The notes under the pieces: generated by a model
Databases searched by the model: none
What the model saw: only the letters and a program-made list of their open reading frames with translations
Told to the model about the DNA's origin: nothing
Position numbers and translations under genes: made by a program
Assembly: GCA_945877855.1 (NCBI GenBank)
Contig: CAMDWA010000028.1
Coordinates: forward strand, 1 to 36,367
DNA: 36,367 bases
From: Thermoflexus hugenholtzii JAD2
GTDB lineage: Bacteria > Chloroflexota > Anaerolineae > J036 > Brachytrichaceae
Reading direction: 5' to 3'
In this document: positions 4,503 to 34,966 of the stretch, piece after piece
Numbering within the stretch: position 1 is the first letter of the stretch
How the letters are laid out: each line of letters begins with the position of its first letter

Positions 4503-4625
4503 GGGAGCCGTGAGCCATGAGCTTTGAGCTTTGAGCCTTGAGCCTTGAGCTATGAGTCACAAGTCACGGCTCATGGCTCATGGCTCATAGCTCATGGCTC
4601 CAAAGCTCATGCCTCACGGCTCAAA
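4503..4625. repeat. Quasi-palindromic heptamer array (TGAGCNN x7, then its complement NNGCTCA x8) in the divergent promoter region
   Basis: Left arm tgagcca/tgagctt/tgagctt/tgagcct/tgagcct/tgagcta; the right arm is the complementary set cggctca/tggctca/tggctca/tagctca and so on. It sits between the GT gene start (4478, minus) and the CMD start (4642, plus). Confidence 0.75.
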
Positions 4626-13869: not shown

Positions 13870-14840
13870 TCACCCCCCTGATGGGTAGCACGGCACTGGC
13901 TTGTTGGATAGTGCACAACAACCTCACAAGACCAGTCCGCGTTGACGCAAATGCAGCACTCACCCTGCTATCAATTGAGGCGGTGGGCGCGTTTGTCTGG
14001 CTTGCTTGCGCGGCTCGTGCGGGGGCAGATGCCCAGCAACTGACAGTTGCTGGGCATCTACTCACCCTTAATTGATGGCAAACGTAACACTCACCACGCC
14101 ATCAATTGAGGCAGTGATGGGGTTAGTCTGGCGTGCTTGCGCGGCTCATGCGGGTGCAGATGCACCGCACCTCGCAGGTGCGGCGCATCTACTCACCCCA
14201 CGTTGGTGGCAAATGCAACGCTCACCCCGCCCTCAATTGAGGCAGTGATGGGGTTAGTCTGGCTTGCTTGCGCGGCTCGTCCGGATGCAGATGCACCGCA
14301 CCTCGCAGGTGCGGCGCATCTACTCACCCTTAAATTGATGGCAATGCAACGCTTACCCCGCCCTCAATTGAGGCAGTGGGCGCGGTCATTTGGCTTGCTT
14401 GCGCGGCTCGTGCGGGGGCAGATGCCCAGCAACTGACAGTTGCTGGGCATCTACTCACCCTTAATTGATGGCAAACGTAACACTAACCCCGCCATCAATT
14501 GAGGCAGTGACGGGGTTAGTCTAGCTTGCTTGCGCGGCTCATGCGGGTGCAGATGCGCCGCACCTGCGAGGTGCGGCGCATCTACTCACCCTTAAATTGG
14601 TGGCAAATGTAACACTCACCCTGCCCTCAATTGAGGCGGTGACGGGGTTAGTCTGGCGTGCTTGCGCGGCTCGTGCAGGTGCAGATGCCCAGCAACTGGC
14701 AGTTGCTGGGCATCTACTCACCCTTAAATTGATGGCAAATGCAACGCTCACCCCACCCTCAATTAAGGCGGTGGGCGCGGTCGTTTGGCTGGCTTGCGCG
14801 GATCGTGCGGGTGCAGATGCGCCGCACCTGCGAAGGGCGA
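13870..14840. repeat. Tandem array of about 7.4 units of ~131 bp (130-133 bp), each with two conserved hairpins and two alternating variants
   Basis: Unit starts (motif caattgagg) at 13971, 14104, 14234, 14365, 14496, 14628 and 14760. Variant A hairpin is gatgcccagcaactg-aca-cagttgctgggcatc; variant B hairpin is gatgcgccgcacct-gcg-aggtgcggcgcatc. A second hairpin, aattgatggc...gcc(a/c)tcaatt, spans the unit junctions. Confidence 0.85.
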
Positions 14841-23194: not shown

Positions 23195-23371
23195 GTTGTA
23201 AGATGATTATAAGTCATGTGGCATTTCAGTCATGCGAGGATAAACGAGGGTTTGACGATTATTAAAAGATAGACCAAGCAAGAGAAAAATCGGCGCAAAT
23301 CGCATTTTTATACCTATCTTAGTATAAAAGCTGTGATACTTTTGCGATTGCCACGTATATTTATTTAGAAC

Positions 23372-23971
23372 ATGGTTGGAAACATTCCTTTCCTTAATCG
23401 CCTCGGCGTATTTGGCAGCCAACAACGGGCCGCCCGTAACCCTAAGATTGATTGGGAGGCTATTTATGCCGATCAATTGCCAAAGGTGTATAACTTTTTT
23501 CGTTACCGCGTGAACGATGATGCCTTGGCCCAAGACATGACCGCCGCCACATTTGAAAAAGCATGGCGAGCGCGTGATCGTTATCGCAGTGATTTGGCAG
23601 GCTTTTCAACATGGTTATTCAGCATTGCGCGTAATGTTGCCAATGACCATTTTAGACAAGCCCAAGCCAATGCACTCAGCGCAACGGCATCGTTAGATGA
23701 AATTGGCGAGGTGTCAACTGAACTCTCGACTGACGACATTGCCCAACAACGGGCCGATTTGCGCCAATTGGCCCGCTTGCTCAGCCAATTAGATCAGCGC
23801 GAACGCGAATTATTGGCGCTGAAATTTGGCGCTGGGCTGACCAATCGTGCCATTGCTGGCCTGATGTCACTCAGCGAATCAAATGTCGGAACCATTACCA
23901 ATCGCCTGATGCAGCGATTAAGAACGGCATGGGACCAACCCACCCCAACTAAAAAAGGAGATTCCCAATGA
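23372..23971 (+). CDS. ECF (group 4) sigma-70 factor
   Basis: Region 2 (ATFEKAWRARDRY...FSTWLFSIARN) and region 4 (RERELLALKFGAGLTNRAIAGLMSLSESNVGTITNR) are both present. Confidence 0.8.
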   Translation: MVGNIPFLNRLGVFGSQQRAARNPKIDWEAIYADQLPKVYNFFRYRVNDDALAQDMTAATFEKAWRARDRYRSDLAGFSTWLFSIARNVANDHFRQAQANALSATASLDEIGEVSTELSTDDIAQQRADLRQLARLLSQLDQRERELLALKFGAGLTNRAIAGLMSLSESNVGTITNRLMQRLRTAWDQPTPTKKGDSQ

Positions 23972-24963
23972 ATACAGAAGAAATGCTCACCCAATATCAG
24001 CAAAAACCCGATGCTGACTTTGCCAAGAAATTGTATCGGCAAATCGATCAGCCAACCGCCACCCGCAAAATTGCACCAGCACGTGCCGCCACCCTCGCCA
24101 TTGCAGGGGCCGCCGCCGTTGGCATGGTGATGTTTAGCGTGCCAAATGTCAGCGAAGCTGCGCAAAACTTCCTCAATTTATTCCGAGTCAAACAAGTCAC
24201 CGCCATCGCCATTGACCCAGCACGCCTAGAAGCGCTGAGCAAAATAGCCAAAGACAACAAAATTGACCTCAAAGCGCTTATCGGCGATGACATCAAAATT
24301 ACCAAAGAGCCGGGCAAGCCCTCGCCAGTTGCCAACGCCGAGCAAGCCAGCAAATTGGCTGGCTTTACGGTAAAGATGCTCGGCCCAACTTCGGGCATGA
24401 CGATGGACAGCATCAATGTGCAAAATGAAGGGTCCTCACAAATTAAGGCCAACAGCGCCAAATTGAACGCTTTGCTCACCACCATGGGCATTACCGATAT
24501 CAAGGCTCCAGCCAAACTCGATGGTGCAACCCTTGCCGTCACCATGCCCAATGTCGTCGCCACTCGTTATTCTGGCGCACGTGGCGAGGTGCTCATTACC
24601 CAAGCCAAAAGCCCCGAAGTTACTTTACCCGATGGCGTGACGATGGCTGAATTGGGCGAGATCGGGTTACGGCTGACCGGCATGCCCGCCAACGATGCCA
24701 AACGGTTGGCTGCCACCATCGATTGGAACAGCACCTTGGTCGTGCCCATCCCCACCAATGTCGCTTCGTTCCGTGATGTCACGGTGCGCGGCAACAAAGG
24801 CGTATTAATCACCCAAAGCGGCAACGGCGCAACCGCCGCCCGCGCCAACAACAGCCCACGCGCCTCGGCGACCCTCATCTGGTCAGAGAATGGCATCGTT
24901 TACGCCGCCGCCAGCACCCTCTCACCCGACGACCTCACCGCCATCGCAGCAACATTACAATAA
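23968..24963 (+). CDS. Putative anti-sigma factor (single TM, large extracytoplasmic domain)
   Basis: ATGA overlap with the sigma gene; short N-terminal cytoplasmic segment, one TM helix (ATLAIAGAAAVGMVMFSV), then a ~270-aa external domain. Confidence 0.55.
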   Translation: MNTEEMLTQYQQKPDADFAKKLYRQIDQPTATRKIAPARAATLAIAGAAAVGMVMFSVPNVSEAAQNFLNLFRVKQVTAIAIDPARLEALSKIAKDNKIDLKALIGDDIKITKEPGKPSPVANAEQASKLAGFTVKMLGPTSGMTMDSINVQNEGSSQIKANSAKLNALLTTMGITDIKAPAKLDGATLAVTMPNVVATRYSGARGEVLITQAKSPEVTLPDGVTMAELGEIGLRLTGMPANDAKRLAATIDWNSTLVVPIPTNVASFRDVTVRGNKGVLITQSGNGATAARANNSPRASATLIWSENGIVYAAASTLSPDDLTAIAATLQ

Positions 24964-24965
24964 GA

Positions 24966-25068
24966 GTGGCAGGAGGCAAGTGGCAGGTAGCAAGTGGCAA
25001 GTAAAAAGTATCTAACTACTTTGCACTTTGCACTTTGCACTTGCCACTTGCCACCTGCCACCTGCCCC
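24966..25068. repeat. Quasi-palindromic heptamer array (GTGGCAR x~7 / YTGCCAC x~7) followed by a T-tract; probable terminator or attenuator between the anti-sigma and ABC genes
   Basis: gtggcag gaggcaa gtggcag gtagcaa gtggcaa ... tttgcac x3 ttgccac x2 ctgccac ctgcccc, then tttttt and the ABC ATG at 25075. Confidence 0.75.
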
Positions 25069-25074
25069 TTTTTT

Positions 25075-25998
25075 ATGTTCGTTATCGAAACCCAACACCT
25101 GCAAAAACAATTTGGCAATAAGCTAGCCGTTGCCGATCTTACGCTCACGGTCAACTCAGGCGAGGTGTTTGGGTTTCTGGGGCCAAATGGGGCAGGTAAA
25201 AGCACCTCAATTAAAATGTTGTTGGGGTTAGTCAAACCCAGTGCGGGCAACTGTTGGGTATTGGGGTTGCCGCCCGGCAATGTGCAAGCTCGCCGCAAAA
25301 TTGGCTTTTTGCCCGAGCATTTTCGTTTTCACGATTGGCTGACCGGACGCGAGTTTCTGCATTTTCACGGGCGGTTATATGGCATGTCGGGCCAAGCACT
25401 CAAACAACGGATCGAGACATTGCTGGCGCGGGTCGCCTTGTTAGAAGCGGGCGACCGCAAATTGCAACAATATAGCAAAGGCATGTTGCAGCGCATCGGG
25501 TTGGCAATGGCCTTGCTCAATCACCCCCAAATTGTCTTTTTAGACGAGCCAACCTCAGGGCTTGACCCATTAGGCCGCCTGCTGGTGCGCGATATCATCA
25601 CGGAAATACGCAACGAAGGCACTACTGTCTTTCTAAATTCGCACTTGCTCAGCGAAATCGAAGTGACGTGTAACCGCGTGGTTTTTCTCAAGCGCGGCAA
25701 TGTGGTGCGCGAAATCAACTTAAAAGACAATGAAATTCATATCAACGAACTCGAACTAAAATTGGGGCCGGTCGATGACAGCATTTTGCAAGGGTTAGCC
25801 CAATTTGGCAGCAATGCCCATCGAGATGGCGACCTCATTCGCATGAATATTCAAGACGAAGCCAGCCTGCCACAACTGGCCCGTTGGCTGGTCGGCCAAG
25901 GTTGCGAAATTTATCGCCTCGCTGCCCATCACCCATCGCTTGAACAACTGTTTGTTGAAACCATGACCGAAGAAAATAAGTTAACCATTGATGGTTAA
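25075..25998 (+). CDS. ABC transporter ATP-binding protein (ABC-2 / exporter type)
   Basis: Walker A GPNGAGKST, signature YSKGMLQRIGLA, and Walker B IVFLDEPTSGLD. Confidence 0.85.
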   Translation: MFVIETQHLQKQFGNKLAVADLTLTVNSGEVFGFLGPNGAGKSTSIKMLLGLVKPSAGNCWVLGLPPGNVQARRKIGFLPEHFRFHDWLTGREFLHFHGRLYGMSGQALKQRIETLLARVALLEAGDRKLQQYSKGMLQRIGLAMALLNHPQIVFLDEPTSGLDPLGRLLVRDIITEIRNEGTTVFLNSHLLSEIEVTCNRVVFLKRGNVVREINLKDNEIHINELELKLGPVDDSILQGLAQFGSNAHRDGDLIRMNIQDEASLPQLARWLVGQGCEIYRLAAHHPSLEQLFVETMTEENKLTIDG

Positions 25999-26078
25999 TG
26001 ATTAATGGTCAATGATTAATGGTTAATGATTAATGGTTAATGATTAATGATTAATGATTAATGATTAATGATTAATGG
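25995..26078. repeat. Heptanucleotide microsatellite TTAATGR x12 spanning the ABC ATPase stop codon and the permease start codon
   Basis: Units counted directly as ttaatga, ttaatgg, tcaatga, ttaatgg, ttaatga, ttaatgg, ttaatga x5, ttaatgg. The ATPase TAA (25996-98) is in unit 1 and the candidate permease ATG (26068) is in unit 11. Confidence 0.85.
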
Positions 26079-26946
26079 TAGTTTTGCTGCGTTAAAAATG
26101 ATGTTTACGATCGCCCATCTCACCTTTCATGAAGCCCTGCGCAAGCGGGTATTACTGGCGGCCATTGTGCTGGGGGCACTTTTTCTCATCGTCTTTGGCG
26201 TTGGCATTTATTTTATTAACGATGCGGTCATCCAACAAGAGTTACGATCAGCGCCGTCGGCCATTCGTGCCCAAAGCAACCGCCTCGCCTATAATTTTTT
26301 GGCGATGGCCGGGCTATACACGGTGAATTTTTTGCTGGTCATGATGGCAACCCTGTTACCCGTTGACACCCTTTCGGGCGAAATAAGCTCTGGCTCAATT
26401 CAGTCATTGGTGGTTAAACCGGTGCGGCGCTCGCAAATTGTGCTAGGCAAATGGCTGGGCTTTGCGTTCATTATGCTGATTTATGCCAGCTGCATGATTG
26501 GCGGCATCGTTGGCCTGGTGGCAATCATGACCAGCTATGACTTGCCCAATATTCACATCGCCCTGCCGATTATGTTACTCGAAACCTTGCTATTGCTCAC
26601 CTTGTCGATTGCAGGCGGCACGCGATTTACCACCTTAACCAATGGCGTTTTTGTGTTTGGTATGTTTGGCTTGGCCTTTATCGGCGGCTGGGTCGAGCAA
26701 GTCGGCGGTTTACTTGGCAATCAGGCCGCGCAAAATATCGGGGTCATCACCAGCCTCATCATGCCTAGCGAAGCGCTGTGGCGGCTAGCCGCGCATTATA
26801 TGCAACCCGATGGCATAAGCGCACTCAACATCACCCCATTTTCAAGCACCATTGTGCCCAGCCCCAATATGTTATTGTGGGCCATTGGCTACACCCTTAT
26901 TACGTTACTGCTCGCCATCCGCCACTTCTCGCAAAGAGATTTATAA
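26068..26946 (+). CDS. ABC-2 family transporter permease
   Basis: 292 aa with about 6 TM helices, located downstream of the ABC ATPase. The start is ambiguous (26068 inside the heptamer repeat, or ATG 26098). Confidence 0.65.
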   Translation: MINGSFAALKMMFTIAHLTFHEALRKRVLLAAIVLGALFLIVFGVGIYFINDAVIQQELRSAPSAIRAQSNRLAYNFLAMAGLYTVNFLLVMMATLLPVDTLSGEISSGSIQSLVVKPVRRSQIVLGKWLGFAFIMLIYASCMIGGIVGLVAIMTSYDLPNIHIALPIMLLETLLLLTLSIAGGTRFTTLTNGVFVFGMFGLAFIGGWVEQVGGLLGNQAAQNIGVITSLIMPSEALWRLAAHYMQPDGISALNITPFSSTIVPSPNMLLWAIGYTLITLLLAIRHFSQRDL

Positions 26947-32548: not shown

Positions 32549-33412
32549 ATGAAGACTCAAATCACCGCCCAAGCCGCATTAAGCCTATTACCCCTGCCCA
32601 ACAACCGGCGTGATGCCGAAGTCGGCAGACGTGGCACACTCATCGTCGAAATGTATGCGCCCAAAGGCACAGACCCGCAGCAACCCCACAACCAAGATGA
32701 GCTTTACATTGTCTATTCTGGCAATGGCACTTTTGTGTGCGGCGACGAGCGCATGACATTTGGCGTTGGTGATGTGTTATTTGTGCCCGCCGGTGTTACT
32801 CACCGCTTCGAGCAATTCAGCGACGATTTCGCCACTTGGGTGGTGTTTTATGGCGAAGCCGGTGGCGAGTTACCTTTGCCCGCCGCCATTGCCGAAGGCG
32901 AAAACCCGCCGCCCGACAGCGCCCTCACCCGCAATGCGCTGATTTGGCGCACCCGCAGCGCCTATGGCGTGCTAAGCGAATTTCTCGACTCGCTTAGCGA
33001 AAGCCAAGCCACCGACCCCAAAGATGCCGCAGGTTGGGCGGTCAAAGATCACGTGTTACACCTCGTGCCATGGCTGCGCAGCATGATTTGGGTGATGAAT
33101 AAACGCCCCAAAGTGGATGGCATGGGAATAAGCAAGGAGCAATATGCCCAAGGCTTTGATGTCGTCAATGACATTATCTTCCAACGCGAAAAACACCGCA
33201 GTTTTTACGATGCCCGTTGGCAACTGCATCGCTGTTATAGCGAATTTATGGCGCTATTAATGTCATTACCCAACGAGGCCGTGTTGCAGCCGTTTAAATC
33301 CTATCAAACGGATTCAGACAAAACCGATCCGGTTATCTTTTGGCTATGGGGCAACAGCGGCGGGCATTTTTATGAACATTTGCCTTGGATGAAAGCCATT
33401 ATCAACCAATGA
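32549..33412 (+). CDS. Cupin-domain protein fused to a DinB/ClbS-like helical domain (hypothetical), inserted between hutU and hutI
   Basis: N-terminal cupin motifs (GTFVCGDERMTFGVGDVLFVPAGVTHRF); a C-terminal ~170 aa with a VKDHVLHLVPW-type helical-bundle motif. ATGA overlap with hutI. Confidence 0.35.
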   Translation: MKTQITAQAALSLLPLPNNRRDAEVGRRGTLIVEMYAPKGTDPQQPHNQDELYIVYSGNGTFVCGDERMTFGVGDVLFVPAGVTHRFEQFSDDFATWVVFYGEAGGELPLPAAIAEGENPPPDSALTRNALIWRTRSAYGVLSEFLDSLSESQATDPKDAAGWAVKDHVLHLVPWLRSMIWVMNKRPKVDGMGISKEQYAQGFDVVNDIIFQREKHRSFYDARWQLHRCYSEFMALLMSLPNEAVLQPFKSYQTDSDKTDPVIFWLWGNSGGHFYEHLPWMKAIINQ

Positions 33413-34707
33413 ACTGCGACCTCATCATCCACTCCGCCGCCCAACTCGTTACCTGCGCCAGCGCCAATAACGGCCCCAAACGCGGCCATGACATGCGCGA
33501 CGTTGGCGACATCGCCAATGGCAATCATTTGCCCGCCGCCATCGCCATTAGCGATGGGCAAATTATTGCCATTGGCCCAAGTGACGATATTTGTGCCGAC
33601 TATCAGGCAAAGCACAGCATCGATGCCAGCGGCAAAACCATTTGCCCGGGGTTGATCGACCCCCATACTCACCTCATTTACGCTGGCGACCGCGTGGCCG
33701 AATGGGAGATGAAACTGCGTGGTGTCGCCTACTTAGAAATTTTGGCCGCGGGCGGCGGCATCGTCAGCACCATGCGGGCCACACGGGCTGCCGGGATAGC
33801 CGCGCTGGTGGCGCAAGCAAAGCCGCGCCTCGACACGCTGATGCGTAATGGTGTCACCACTTGCGAGATCAAAACCGGTTATGGCCTCAGCCTCGAGGCC
33901 GAATTAGCCATGTTACAAGCCATTGAACAACTGGCACAAACCCACCCATGCGATGTGCTTTTAACATTACTCGCCGCCCATACCACCCCACCCGAATTTA
34001 AAACCGACCCAAATGGCTATGTCGATTTGGTGGTTGAGCAAATCATTCCCCAAGCCGCCGCATGGTTTAATCAAAACGCCCGTGCCAACCACGCTACACC
34101 CATGGCATGTGATGTATTTTGCGAAAATCACGCCTTTGATGTGGCGCAAGCACGGCGAATATTAATGGCAGGCAAACAACATGGCCTCACACCTAAAATC
34201 CACGTCGATCAATTTACCTCATTGGGCGGGGTCGAGATGGCGCTTGAGGTCGGCGCGTTATCGTGCGATCATTTAGATGTGACCACAGCCGACGATCGGG
34301 CGCGGCTAGCGCAATCATCGGCTGTAGCAGTGGTGTTACCCGCGGTCACATTTCATCTTGGCAGCCACCAATTTGCCAACGCCCGTGCTTTTATTGATGA
34401 TGGCTGTGCACTCGCGCTCAGCACCGACCATAACCCCGGCTCGGCCCCGTGTTTGTCGCCTGCGCTCACCATGTCGATCGCATGTCGTTACCAGAAACTC
34501 AACCCTGCCGAAGCGCTCAACGCTTGCACCATCAACGCCGCCCATGCACTTGGCATCGGCAACAAAGTTGGCTCGCTCGAAATCGGCAAACAAGCCGATA
34601 TCATTATCATCAACGCGCCCGACTATCGCCACTTAGCCTATCAATTTGGGGGCAATTTGGTGCAATATGTTATTAAAAATGGGGCAGTAGCAATGGTTAA
34701 TGGTTAA
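33409..34707 (+). CDS. hutI: Imidazolonepropionase
   Basis: Amidohydrolase fold with GLIDPHTHL, KIHVDQF and the metal-ligand pattern typical of HutI. Start taken at MNCDL, overlapping the upstream stop; the track ORF starts at 33385. Confidence 0.85.
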   Translation: MNCDLIIHSAAQLVTCASANNGPKRGHDMRDVGDIANGNHLPAAIAISDGQIIAIGPSDDICADYQAKHSIDASGKTICPGLIDPHTHLIYAGDRVAEWEMKLRGVAYLEILAAGGGIVSTMRATRAAGIAALVAQAKPRLDTLMRNGVTTCEIKTGYGLSLEAELAMLQAIEQLAQTHPCDVLLTLLAAHTTPPEFKTDPNGYVDLVVEQIIPQAAAWFNQNARANHATPMACDVFCENHAFDVAQARRILMAGKQHGLTPKIHVDQFTSLGGVEMALEVGALSCDHLDVTTADDRARLAQSSAVAVVLPAVTFHLGSHQFANARAFIDDGCALALSTDHNPGSAPCLSPALTMSIACRYQKLNPAEALNACTINAAHALGIGNKVGSLEIGKQADIIIINAPDYRHLAYQFGGNLVQYVIKNGAVAMVNG

Positions 34708-34716
34708 TGAATTTAT

Positions 34717-34816
34717 TTTCGCCGAACTCACTATCACTTCGTGTTTGGAGAAGGCAAAGCCTTCTCCAAACACAAAGTGATAGTGAGTTCGGCATTACGT
34801 CTTTTATGGTCACCCC
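34717..34816. repeat. ~100-bp palindromic MITE-like element (family 2, copy 3)
   Basis: ttttcgccgaactcactatcacttcgtgtttggagaaggcaaagccttctccaaacacaaagtgatagtgagttcggcattacgtcttttatggtcacccc. Confidence 0.8.
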
Positions 34817-34836: not shown

Positions 34837-34873
34837 AAAAGCCTTGATTTCTGATCAAAATCAAGGCTTTTTT
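34837..34873. terminator. Bidirectional rho-independent terminator (stem aaaagccttgatt / aatcaaggctttt, with T/A tracts on both sides)
   Basis: Hairpin followed by TTTTTT on the + strand (hut operon side) and by TTTTT on the minus strand immediately 3' of the tRNA. Confidence 0.7.
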
Positions 34874-34876
34874 ATA

Positions 34877-34950
34877 CGCCCTCAGAGAGACTCGAACTCC
34901 CGACCTAGGCATTAGAAGGGCCGCGCTCTATCCACCTGAGCTATGAGGGC
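34877..34950 (-). tRNA. tRNA-Arg (anticodon TCT), no encoded CCA
   Basis: Minus-strand sequence GCCCTCATAGCTCAGGTGGATAGAGCGCGGCCCTTCTAATGCCTAGGTCGGGAGTTCGAGTCTCTCTGAGGGCG. Clover-leaf with a 7-bp acceptor stem, GCTC/GAGC D-stem, T-arm GGGAG-TTCGAGT-CTCTC and anticodon loop CTTCTAA. The anticodon stem has only 3 Watson-Crick pairs (C:U at 27:43 and 31:39). Confidence 0.7.
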
Positions 34951-34966
34951 AAGCGCATCGCGCCAA

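Follow-up and report, generated by a model that had tools for sequence, protein, structure and literature searches.

The 36,367-nucleotide contig CAMDWA010000028.1 (assembly GCA_945877855.1, listed under Thermoflexus hugenholtzii JAD2; this whole stretch is called the window below) carries a tandem array of 7-nt units of the TTAATGR type (R is A or G) at 25988-26078 on the plus strand, at the junction between the gene of an ATP-binding cassette (ABC) transporter ATPase and that of an ABC-2 family permease. We interpret this array as a hypermutable heptanucleotide microsatellite, one of many intergenic period-7 arrays of an uncultured Chloroflexota (Anaerolineae-type) lineage and an analogue of the short tandemly repeated repetitive (STRR) elements of cyanobacteria, a reading to which we give a probability of about 0.7. 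According to this reading, units would be gained and lost by replication slippage, and the array, carried within an ATPase-permease messenger, would fold into a long, weak hairpin ending ~20 nt ahead of the permease start. Translation of the permease would begin at ATG 26101 (or 26098) at any copy number. Copy number would set the length of the spacer (43-141 nt) and the stability of the hairpin (about -27 to -62 kcal/mol), with at most a quantitative tuning of permease translation or messenger stability and no on/off switching expected.

The array is composed of 13 in-register units, as judged by register reading, Tandem Repeats Finder (TRF) and comparison with shuffled sequences. It starts with a degenerate unit, TTGATGG (25988-25994), located inside the ATPase reading frame and followed by 12 heptamers at 25995-26078. 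The original prediction had described TTAATGR repeated 12 times exactly at 25995-26078. The array and its coordinates stand, but the repetition is not exact, as 11 of the 12 heptamers fit TTAATGR, unit 3 (26009-26015) reads TCAATGA, and the 13th, degenerate unit lies upstream. Units 7-11 are five identical TTAATGA, and the last base alternates between G and A in the first half of the array, leading to a 14-nt higher-order period. TRF recovers both the 7-nt period (13.0 copies, score 140) and the 14-nt one (score 158). A three-unit pattern with one mismatch allowed has 11 matches in the window and none in 100 dinucleotide-preserving shuffles, which excludes a chance origin of the array. The array extends from the ATPase stop codon to 22 nt short of the conserved permease ATG, and only its first 1.5 units are coding. 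The ATPase gene (307 aa, PF00005, plus strand, 25075-25998, as delimited by gene callers) ends in the codons ATT GAT GGT TAA, which are built from repeat units, and its TAA (25996-25998) sits in unit 1, as predicted. Over 3.5-6.9 kb, four assemblies made independently match the window at 100% identity, including the 13-unit sequence, and the array is shorter than the k of 141, so that an assembly artefact was rejected as the source of the window array. The ATPase protein is also present on metagenome contigs and in the metagenome-assembled genome (MAG) GCA_947492325.1.

The nearest genomes are uncultured Chloroflexota/Anaerolineae MAGs, with permease identities of 96% (L005 and L006) and 82% (L007), and of at most 57% for the others. 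A 7-bp unit had been predicted to be prone to slipped-strand changes, and a search for length polymorphism of the junction had been proposed as a check. This check was run on metagenome contigs of several strains, gathered as the contigs of 90%-identity cluster members of both proteins and by exact-protein look-ups, and variation was found: orthologous junctions carry 5, 6, 7, 8, 9, 10, 11, 13 or 19 units. Alleles of the window type have 13 units (the window and L180, the latter with one point change), 11 (L181), 9 (L166), 5 (L168) or 19 units (L179). Those of the L005 type, named after the relative whose junction holds 8 copies of a TTAATGR-type unit, have 8 units (L171), 7 (L172, L173, L175, L182 and L183), 6 in two compositions (L170, L174 and L185) or 10 units (L184). 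All allele differences consist of whole 7-nt units. The spacer separating the array from the conserved permease start (TAGTTTTGCTGCGTTAAAAATG, 22 nt, plus strand, 26079-26100) has the same length throughout and shows only two point differences across strains. Measured to ATG 26098, the spacing from the ATPase stop ranges from 43 to 141 nt across alleles, in agreement with the expectation that copy number would alter the distance between the two genes, and the ATPase and permease reading frames are intact in every allele. Among the contigs with 6 (two compositions), 7 and 8 units, we found no mismatch over 900 nt of the ATPase gene and 800 nt of the permease gene. Since these contigs share 1,700 nt of mismatch-free flanks, the array gains and loses units far faster than the flanking DNA takes substitutions, and the expectation of slipped-strand change is borne out by whole-unit alleles of 5-19 units. 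The 7-unit allele was found in five independent assemblies, and assemblies with k = 87-141 span arrays of 42-133 nt. A scan of Joint Genome Institute metagenome contigs with the permease returned no close relatives (best identity 56%) and is uninformative on repeat variation. We also considered an even-parity constraint on copy number, by which ribosomes would be handed over in frame. Window-type totals are odd (5, 9, 11, 13, 13 and 19) and L005-type totals are 6, 7, 8 and 10, and there is no evidence for such a constraint since either parity ends at a permease-frame ATG.

Similar arrays occupy unrelated intergenic regions in this genome and in its relatives, indicating that the repeat is a genome-wide habit and not a device tied to the transporter. 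Using TRF with a threshold of at least 3.5 copies, we obtained 26 period-7 rows and 1 period-6 row in the window and L005-L007 (72.7 kb), compared with 23 period-7, 26 period-6 and 25 period-8 rows in 76 more distant loci totalling 772 kb. The density of period-7 arrays in the clade, sampled over ~73 kb or less than one whole genome, is ~12-fold that of the other 76 loci, and the enrichment is specific to period 7. Once gene starts are placed correctly, the strong arrays of the window all lie within the ~9% of non-coding sequence. Most of them are inverted pairs, and the unit sequence differs at every locus. The unrelated junctions include a pair of divergently oriented genes, the region upstream of the ATPase, the end of hutI and several loci of L007. 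Between the divergent genes, an inverted pair made of GAGCCTT-type units and then of their complement occupies 4505-4623 (no strand assigned). Upstream of the ATPase, a heptamer hairpin (plus strand, 24965-25074, inverted pair at 24965-25070) with a GGCARGT-type left arm, a loop and an ACYTGCC/ACTTTGC right arm fills the spacer after the gene of a 331-aa protein (23968-24963), and ends in a six-T run directly ahead of the ATPase ATG. The copy number of its arms varies between strains, each arm independently. The hutI gene (33385-34707), which had been noted to end in a two-unit copy of the junction motif, indeed has its last codons and stop formed by a 2.6-unit copy (AATGGTTAATGGTTAATGA, plus strand, 34692-34709), possibly a seed that has not expanded. 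At an unrelated locus of L007 (2467-2560), we observed an array of TTAATGA/TTAGTGA type together with an inverted partner of ATTCATA type, showing that TTAATGR-like units arise elsewhere in the clade.

Further period-7 arrays were observed in the window and in other genomes. At 1391-1426 (no strand assigned), between two minus-strand genes, CCACACC is repeated five times in direct orientation with no inverted partner seen. On the minus strand, which is the sense strand of both neighbours, the unit becomes GGTGTGG, and G-rich heptamers of this kind have been discussed as quadruplex formers in Xanthomonas and Nostoc. The unit AATTACG forms an inverted array pair in L007 (12545-12687) and a 9.9-copy array in L080 (5898-5966), a distant Chloroflexi MAG with 45% permease identity. 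Weaker period-7 arrays were seen in other Anaerolineales loci (L075, L052 and L067).

Comparison of the ATPase-permease junction between relatives indicates how the arrays may have evolved. The junction of L006 consists of AGTTGAC repeated six times, a short loop and about eight copies of the complementary GTCAACT. That of L186, a relative of L006, has four AGTTGAC, a short loop and about four GTCAACT, and that of L007 four ACGAGTA, a loop and four TACTCGT. In homologs with at most 57% identity, the stop and start codons overlap or lie 0-5 nt apart, with no spacer. Arrays being present in L005-L007 and L186, and the distant homologs having no spacer, heptamer arrays would therefore have entered the junction in the ancestor of a small clade and later changed in length and unit. 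The first units of the window (AGTTAAC, CATTGAT and GGTTAAT) resemble the L006 units AGTTGAC and AGTTGAT, with NNTTRAY as common pattern, and the ATPase tails encoded by the repeats are alike (LTIDG in the window, LTVDS in L006). This resemblance suggests that the window and L006 arrays diverged in place from one ancestral array. For the L007 unit, no homology to the other junction units is claimed because matches of 5/7 in the best rotation are common, being expected by chance in about one comparison in six by our own estimate.

The same data bear on an origin of the junction arrays by insertion, in which a small mobile element resembling a miniature inverted-repeat transposable element (MITE), or its remnant, would have carried heptamer arrays to the junction in place of an expansion on site. 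Inverted arrays do look like terminal inverted repeats, and in the contig L173 the join to a different upstream gene falls inside the loop of an array. Nevertheless, every locus has its own unit sequence, both spacers of the operon are occupied in all four lineages, and the NNTTRAY pattern and LTIDG/LTVDS tails shared by the window and L006 point to an ancestral array evolving in place. We regard such an insertion as extremely improbable.

We then examined the permease start, the choice of which had been suggested as possibly depending on the repeat. The first ATG opening into the permease frame lies in unit 11 (26068), as predicted, and further in-frame ATGs are found at 26098 and 26101. Gene callers select ATG 26068, giving a 292-aa protein, and PGAP-type calls give 282 and 281 aa, lengths also obtained for the L006-type strains. 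In L006, L186 and L007, the nearest ATG preceding the conserved N-terminus M-[FL]-T-I-A-H-L corresponds to position 26101, and the ATG at 26101 is the only start codon conserved in all permease relatives. A permease variant reading KIMFT has no ATG at the 26098 position, and tblastn matches to homologs start at residues 2-5 of MMFTIAHL. The 10-residue extension starting at 26068 has 3 variable columns out of 10, compared with 20 out of 282 for the rest of the protein (one-sided Fisher p = 0.036). Because ATG 26101 is conserved in relatives, 26098 is lost in one variant and the 26068 extension is more variable, the working start is most likely ATG 26101, from which the permease (MFTIAHL..., plus strand, 26101-26946) was delimited with Pfam PF12679 and homolog N-termini. 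The 292-aa calls probably over-extend into the repeat by 10 or 11 spurious residues, an artefact that has probably spread through protein databases. A conserved start downstream of the array, a variable 26068 extension and a predicted accessibility that stays flat over 5-19 units all speak against the proposal that the repeat governs start choice. No GGAG, GAGG or AGGA motif is present in the spacer at 26079-26100.

The array had also been proposed as a plausible contingency or translational-coupling device. In the contingency version, slippage would heritably and reversibly switch or strongly modulate the permease and produce pre-adapted variants. A hypermutable array placed immediately before the permease gene fits this version, and Haemophilus influenzae offers a precedent for heptanucleotide tracts modulating expression, with TGAAAGA repeated upstream of hmw1A/hmw2A (PMC2651432). 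Against this, every allele leaves the two reading frames undisturbed, the conserved permease start is downstream of the array, no promoter-like site is found in or beside it, and similar arrays are located at many unrelated junctions with no tie to particular gene functions. Moreover, the permease is a housekeeping-type ABC-2 exporter subunit of a free-living environmental lineage, and its ATPase partner would not co-vary. Of the features expected of contingency loci, the hypermutable tract is present, but its unit changes leave both frames and the downstream conserved start untouched, no promoter-like site coincides with it, and the arrays are spread over unrelated junctions instead of accompanying particular functions such as surface structures or restriction-modification. 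A contingency switch is very unlikely, since frames and recognisable promoters are unaltered in every allele and the arrays do not follow particular gene functions, and on/off switching of the permease by the array appears unlikely as well.

The putative operon context was analyzed by consensus scans. An ECF (extracytoplasmic function)-type sigma factor gene (23372-23971) and the gene of the 331-aa protein, which has no Pfam match, are both on the plus strand, like the transporter genes. The scan detected a promoter-like site at 23333-23361, ahead of the sigma factor gene, and no promoter-like or terminator-like site in or beside the array. An internal promoter or a classic terminator at the array is therefore unsupported. 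The stem is rich in A/U and has only four U after it. No known RNA family was identified by Rfam at the array, the only match in the window being a tRNA at 34877-34950. From gene order and the absence of both kinds of site at the array, promoter-like and terminator-like, we infer that the array would be transcribed within an ATPase-permease messenger.

In such a messenger, the array is predicted to fold on itself into a long imperfect RNA hairpin (plus strand, 25984-26079) with a minimum free energy of -38.2 kcal/mol, compared with -17.2 +/- 2.6 kcal/mol for shuffled sequences (z -8.1). The predicted hairpin is made of 6-bp A-U/G-U helices split by single mismatches, with a loop near 26028-26035, and covers the ATPase stop codon and ATG 26068. 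The TTAATGR unit is nearly self-complementary (ATTAAT core), and R sits at a position where both A and G pair with U. For the antisense RNA the value is only -15.3 kcal/mol, and the array as DNA gives a weak, diffuse fold (-14.5 kcal/mol) with an unstructured centroid. When longer flanks are included, the array alternatively folds as two shorter hairpins. Strong folds were also predicted for the other arrays: -62.2 kcal/mol (z -7.6) for the RNA of the 24965-25074 structure, -91.5 kcal/mol (z -11.4) for the inverted pair at 4505-4623, and -43 and -67 kcal/mol for the junctions of L007 and L006, with z values overall from -7.6 to -11.4. According to these models, all three junction unit types can form a stem-loop running from the ATPase end to shortly ahead of the permease start. 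In the natural alleles, the junction is predicted to fold with -27 to -62 kcal/mol, more strongly with more units, and the predicted unpaired probability at the conserved permease start is 0.48-0.51 from 5 to 19 units.

These predictions raise the question of whether an intercistronic RNA hairpin has been selected, either to shield the upstream messenger from 3' exonucleases or to enforce translational coupling, with a strength tunable by slippage. In the coupling version, a ribosome finishing the ATPase could melt a stem that hides the permease initiation region. Four lineages, whose junctions use three different units, have all retained hairpin potential there. For L006 and L007, the end of the 3' arm is 3-14 nt away from the ATG, and the 5' arm either overlaps the ATPase stop or comes immediately after it. 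The only frequent unit variant of the window array, at R, keeps its pairing with U, a stable fold is predicted for the sense RNA only, and the same roles have been proposed for the STRR hairpins located between hupS and hupL in cyanobacteria (PMC2670836). On the other hand, arm lengths vary independently between strains, an intercistronic role is impossible for arrays between divergent genes (4505-4623), distant homologs manage without a spacer, and the hairpin of the window does not include the conserved start, the predicted accessibility of which is independent of copy number. In addition, a mechanism intrinsically making palindromic arrays would yield the same pattern without selection. We therefore hold a selected hairpin to be unlikely, although it is the main rival reading, and an array-mediated translational coupling of ATPase and permease is a possibility.

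A broader proposal, which we consider quite improbable, is that the lineage builds its intergenic spacers from "hairpin microsatellites", palindromic heptamer arrays in which the stem-loop between neighbouring genes is kept and the unit turns over quickly. These would be either selected regulators tunable by slippage or the product of a lineage-specific, hitherto undescribed, hairpin-templated slippage mechanism. The TTAATGR array may then be a limiting case, where a self-complementary unit allows one direct array to serve as both arms, and in the version with selected regulators such elements may act on coupling or messenger stability inside operons. Independently of this proposal, the junction provides a natural allelic series, with 5-19 units at one operon junction on otherwise identical DNA and three hairpin-forming units in sister lineages, on which a tuning of translation or messenger stability by such repeats could be examined.

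The unit sequence also suggests a relay of minicistrons, through which ribosomes leaving the ATPase would re-initiate stepwise across the array up to the permease start. A pair of units encodes ATG ATT AAT GRT TAA, the TAA of which overlaps the next ATG (TAATG), and an unbroken chain of overlapping stops and starts links the ATPase stop with an ATG in the permease frame in 9 of the 10 alleles. Depending on parity, the chain finishes at the ATG of the penultimate unit or at a stop placed 2 nt ahead of ATG 26098. Yet this chain follows automatically from the unit sequence, the junction arrays of L006 and L007 contain no ATG, the allele of L184 breaks the chain, and no Shine-Dalgarno-like motif is found. 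We regard the minicistron chain as a curiosity and not as a mechanism, and a relay has hardly any likelihood in our judgement.

Several points weigh against the interpretation of the array as one microsatellite among many. All alleles were taken from short-read metagenome assemblies, and one of them, the 5-unit allele of L168, is a Logan contig built with k=31 that could be collapsed. Seven contigs, including L165, L167, L169 and L176-L178, break off inside the TTAATGR array, and assemblies of this lineage appear prone to break at heptamer arrays. No copy-number variation was observed among the four assemblies of the source strain. Co-transcription of the ATPase and permease genes is deduced solely from gene order and from the absence of an intervening promoter-like site. 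Finally, hairpin-forming arrays have been kept at the junction in four lineages despite the change of unit, which could reflect selection for structure.

Among known systems, the STRR sequences of cyanobacteria are the closest in kind. Heptanucleotide STRR sequences were described in filamentous and heterocystous cyanobacteria (Mazel et al. 1990, as cited in PMC4692102), and a hairpin-forming 7-bp STRR located between the co-transcribed hupS and hupL genes of filamentous cyanobacteria was suggested to act on transcript stability or translational coupling (PMC2670836). The array shares with them tandem 7-nt units, an intergenic position that includes junctions between subunit genes, the existence of many arrays and hairpins. 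It differs by its Chloroflexota host, by units that differ from theirs and are locus-specific, by the prevalence of inverted pairs, and by a copy-number variation between strains that is shown directly. A tandem organization beyond chance, a non-coding position, an over-representation of period 7 and whole-unit polymorphism are all observed here, as in STRR-like heptanucleotide arrays. In the strict cyanobacterial sense, the array falls outside the family, its closest genomes being Chloroflexota/Anaerolineae MAGs and its unit TTAATGR. Cyanobacterial STRR units, such as CCCCAGT, TTGGTCA and CAACAGT, are not known to include TTAATGR. By analogy, the array would work like an STRR without being a strict member.

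More generally, heptanucleotides were reported as the commonest class of long simple-sequence repeat in many bacteria, and slippage of the polymerase was proposed as their origin (Mrazek 2007, as summarized in PMC4679880 and PMC4692102). As far as these summaries describe them, those repeats resemble the arrays studied here in the dominance of heptanucleotides, the preference for intergenic regions, the sporadic phylogeny and the proposed slippage. The GGGAATC repeats of Xanthomonas and the GGGGA(T/C)T repeats of Nostoc are intergenic, in part inverted and located between the same gene pairs in related species, with extensive variation in length and sequence between these species (PMC4692102). 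These G-rich units were studied for their quadruplex formation, whereas TTAATGR is A/T-rich and its predicted hairpin relies on A-U/G-U pairs. Direct repeats of TAACTGA, found in marine Beggiatoaceae, some Cyanobacteria and Bacteroidetes, were proposed to have a translational role (PMC4679880). Like TTAATGR, TAACTGA carries TAA and TGA, closes every forward frame and is forward-oriented immediately ahead of starts without ribosome-binding motifs. Unlike the present arrays, which have their own unit at each locus, higher copy numbers and predicted hairpins, it is a single unit used genome-wide and across phyla, usually in 2-6 copies and with no predicted structure. The array, with TTAATGR as unit and other units at other window loci, does not belong to the TAACTGA network. 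In Haemophilus influenzae, the TGAAAGA tracts modulate the expression of hmw1A and hmw2A (PMC2651432). Like the array, they are variable-number 7-nt tracts upstream of a gene with a strain-dependent copy number, but the genes in question encode adhesins of a host-adapted pathogen, and the tracts sit in their promoters with a demonstrated effect on expression, in contrast to an array within an operon of a free-living lineage that follows a genome-wide pattern.

A likeness with repetitive extragenic palindromic (REP) elements is limited to a predicted transcript stem-loop, present on the sense strand only, since units differ at each locus and share no common consensus. REP elements of enterobacteria are extragenic palindromes located in operons, which form stem-loops in messengers and can shift the expression of the flanking genes relative to each other. 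They have one consensus, contain no tandem heptamers, do not change length by unit slippage and are associated with a RAYT (REP-associated tyrosine) transposase. In the searchable literature, no paper combining "heptanucleotide" and "Chloroflex" was found, and the Chloroflexota host lineage appears new for heptanucleotide repeats, a phenomenon known in cyanobacteria, Xanthomonas and Beggiatoaceae that would here extend to one uncultured lineage of Chloroflexota.

Two contigs show unusual combinations of sequences around the arrays. L173 (positions 1-1200, ERZ28657115 scaffold_853) has the ATPase and the right arm of the upstream heptamer hairpin as in the window, together with a different left arm and, in place of the 331-aa protein gene, a gene for an AMP-binding enzyme. 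The join is located in the hairpin loop and is due either to recombination at heptamer arrays or to a chimeric assembly. L168 (Logan SRR35672364) is a mosaic with a window-type ATPase (99.3% identical) and an L006-type array upstream of the ATPase, which suggests recombination between strains around arrays.

Other repeated or palindromic structures were noticed in the window. At 13947-14830, a 131-bp G+C-rich unit is repeated in tandem (6.7 copies, 83% match); it is crossed by no long reading frame, and its unit length is not divisible by 3. A near-perfect palindrome with ~35-bp arms lies at 34721-34793, directly past the hutI stop and the TTAATGR seed. It is not built from heptamers, and its DNA fold reaches -39.8 kcal/mol (z -14). 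Finally, a terminator-like hairpin with A and T runs (AAAAAGCCTTGATT...AATCAAGGCTTTTTT), within 34838-34951, adjoins a tRNA-Arg gene (anticodon tct) on the minus strand at 34876-34951, the sole Rfam match mentioned above.

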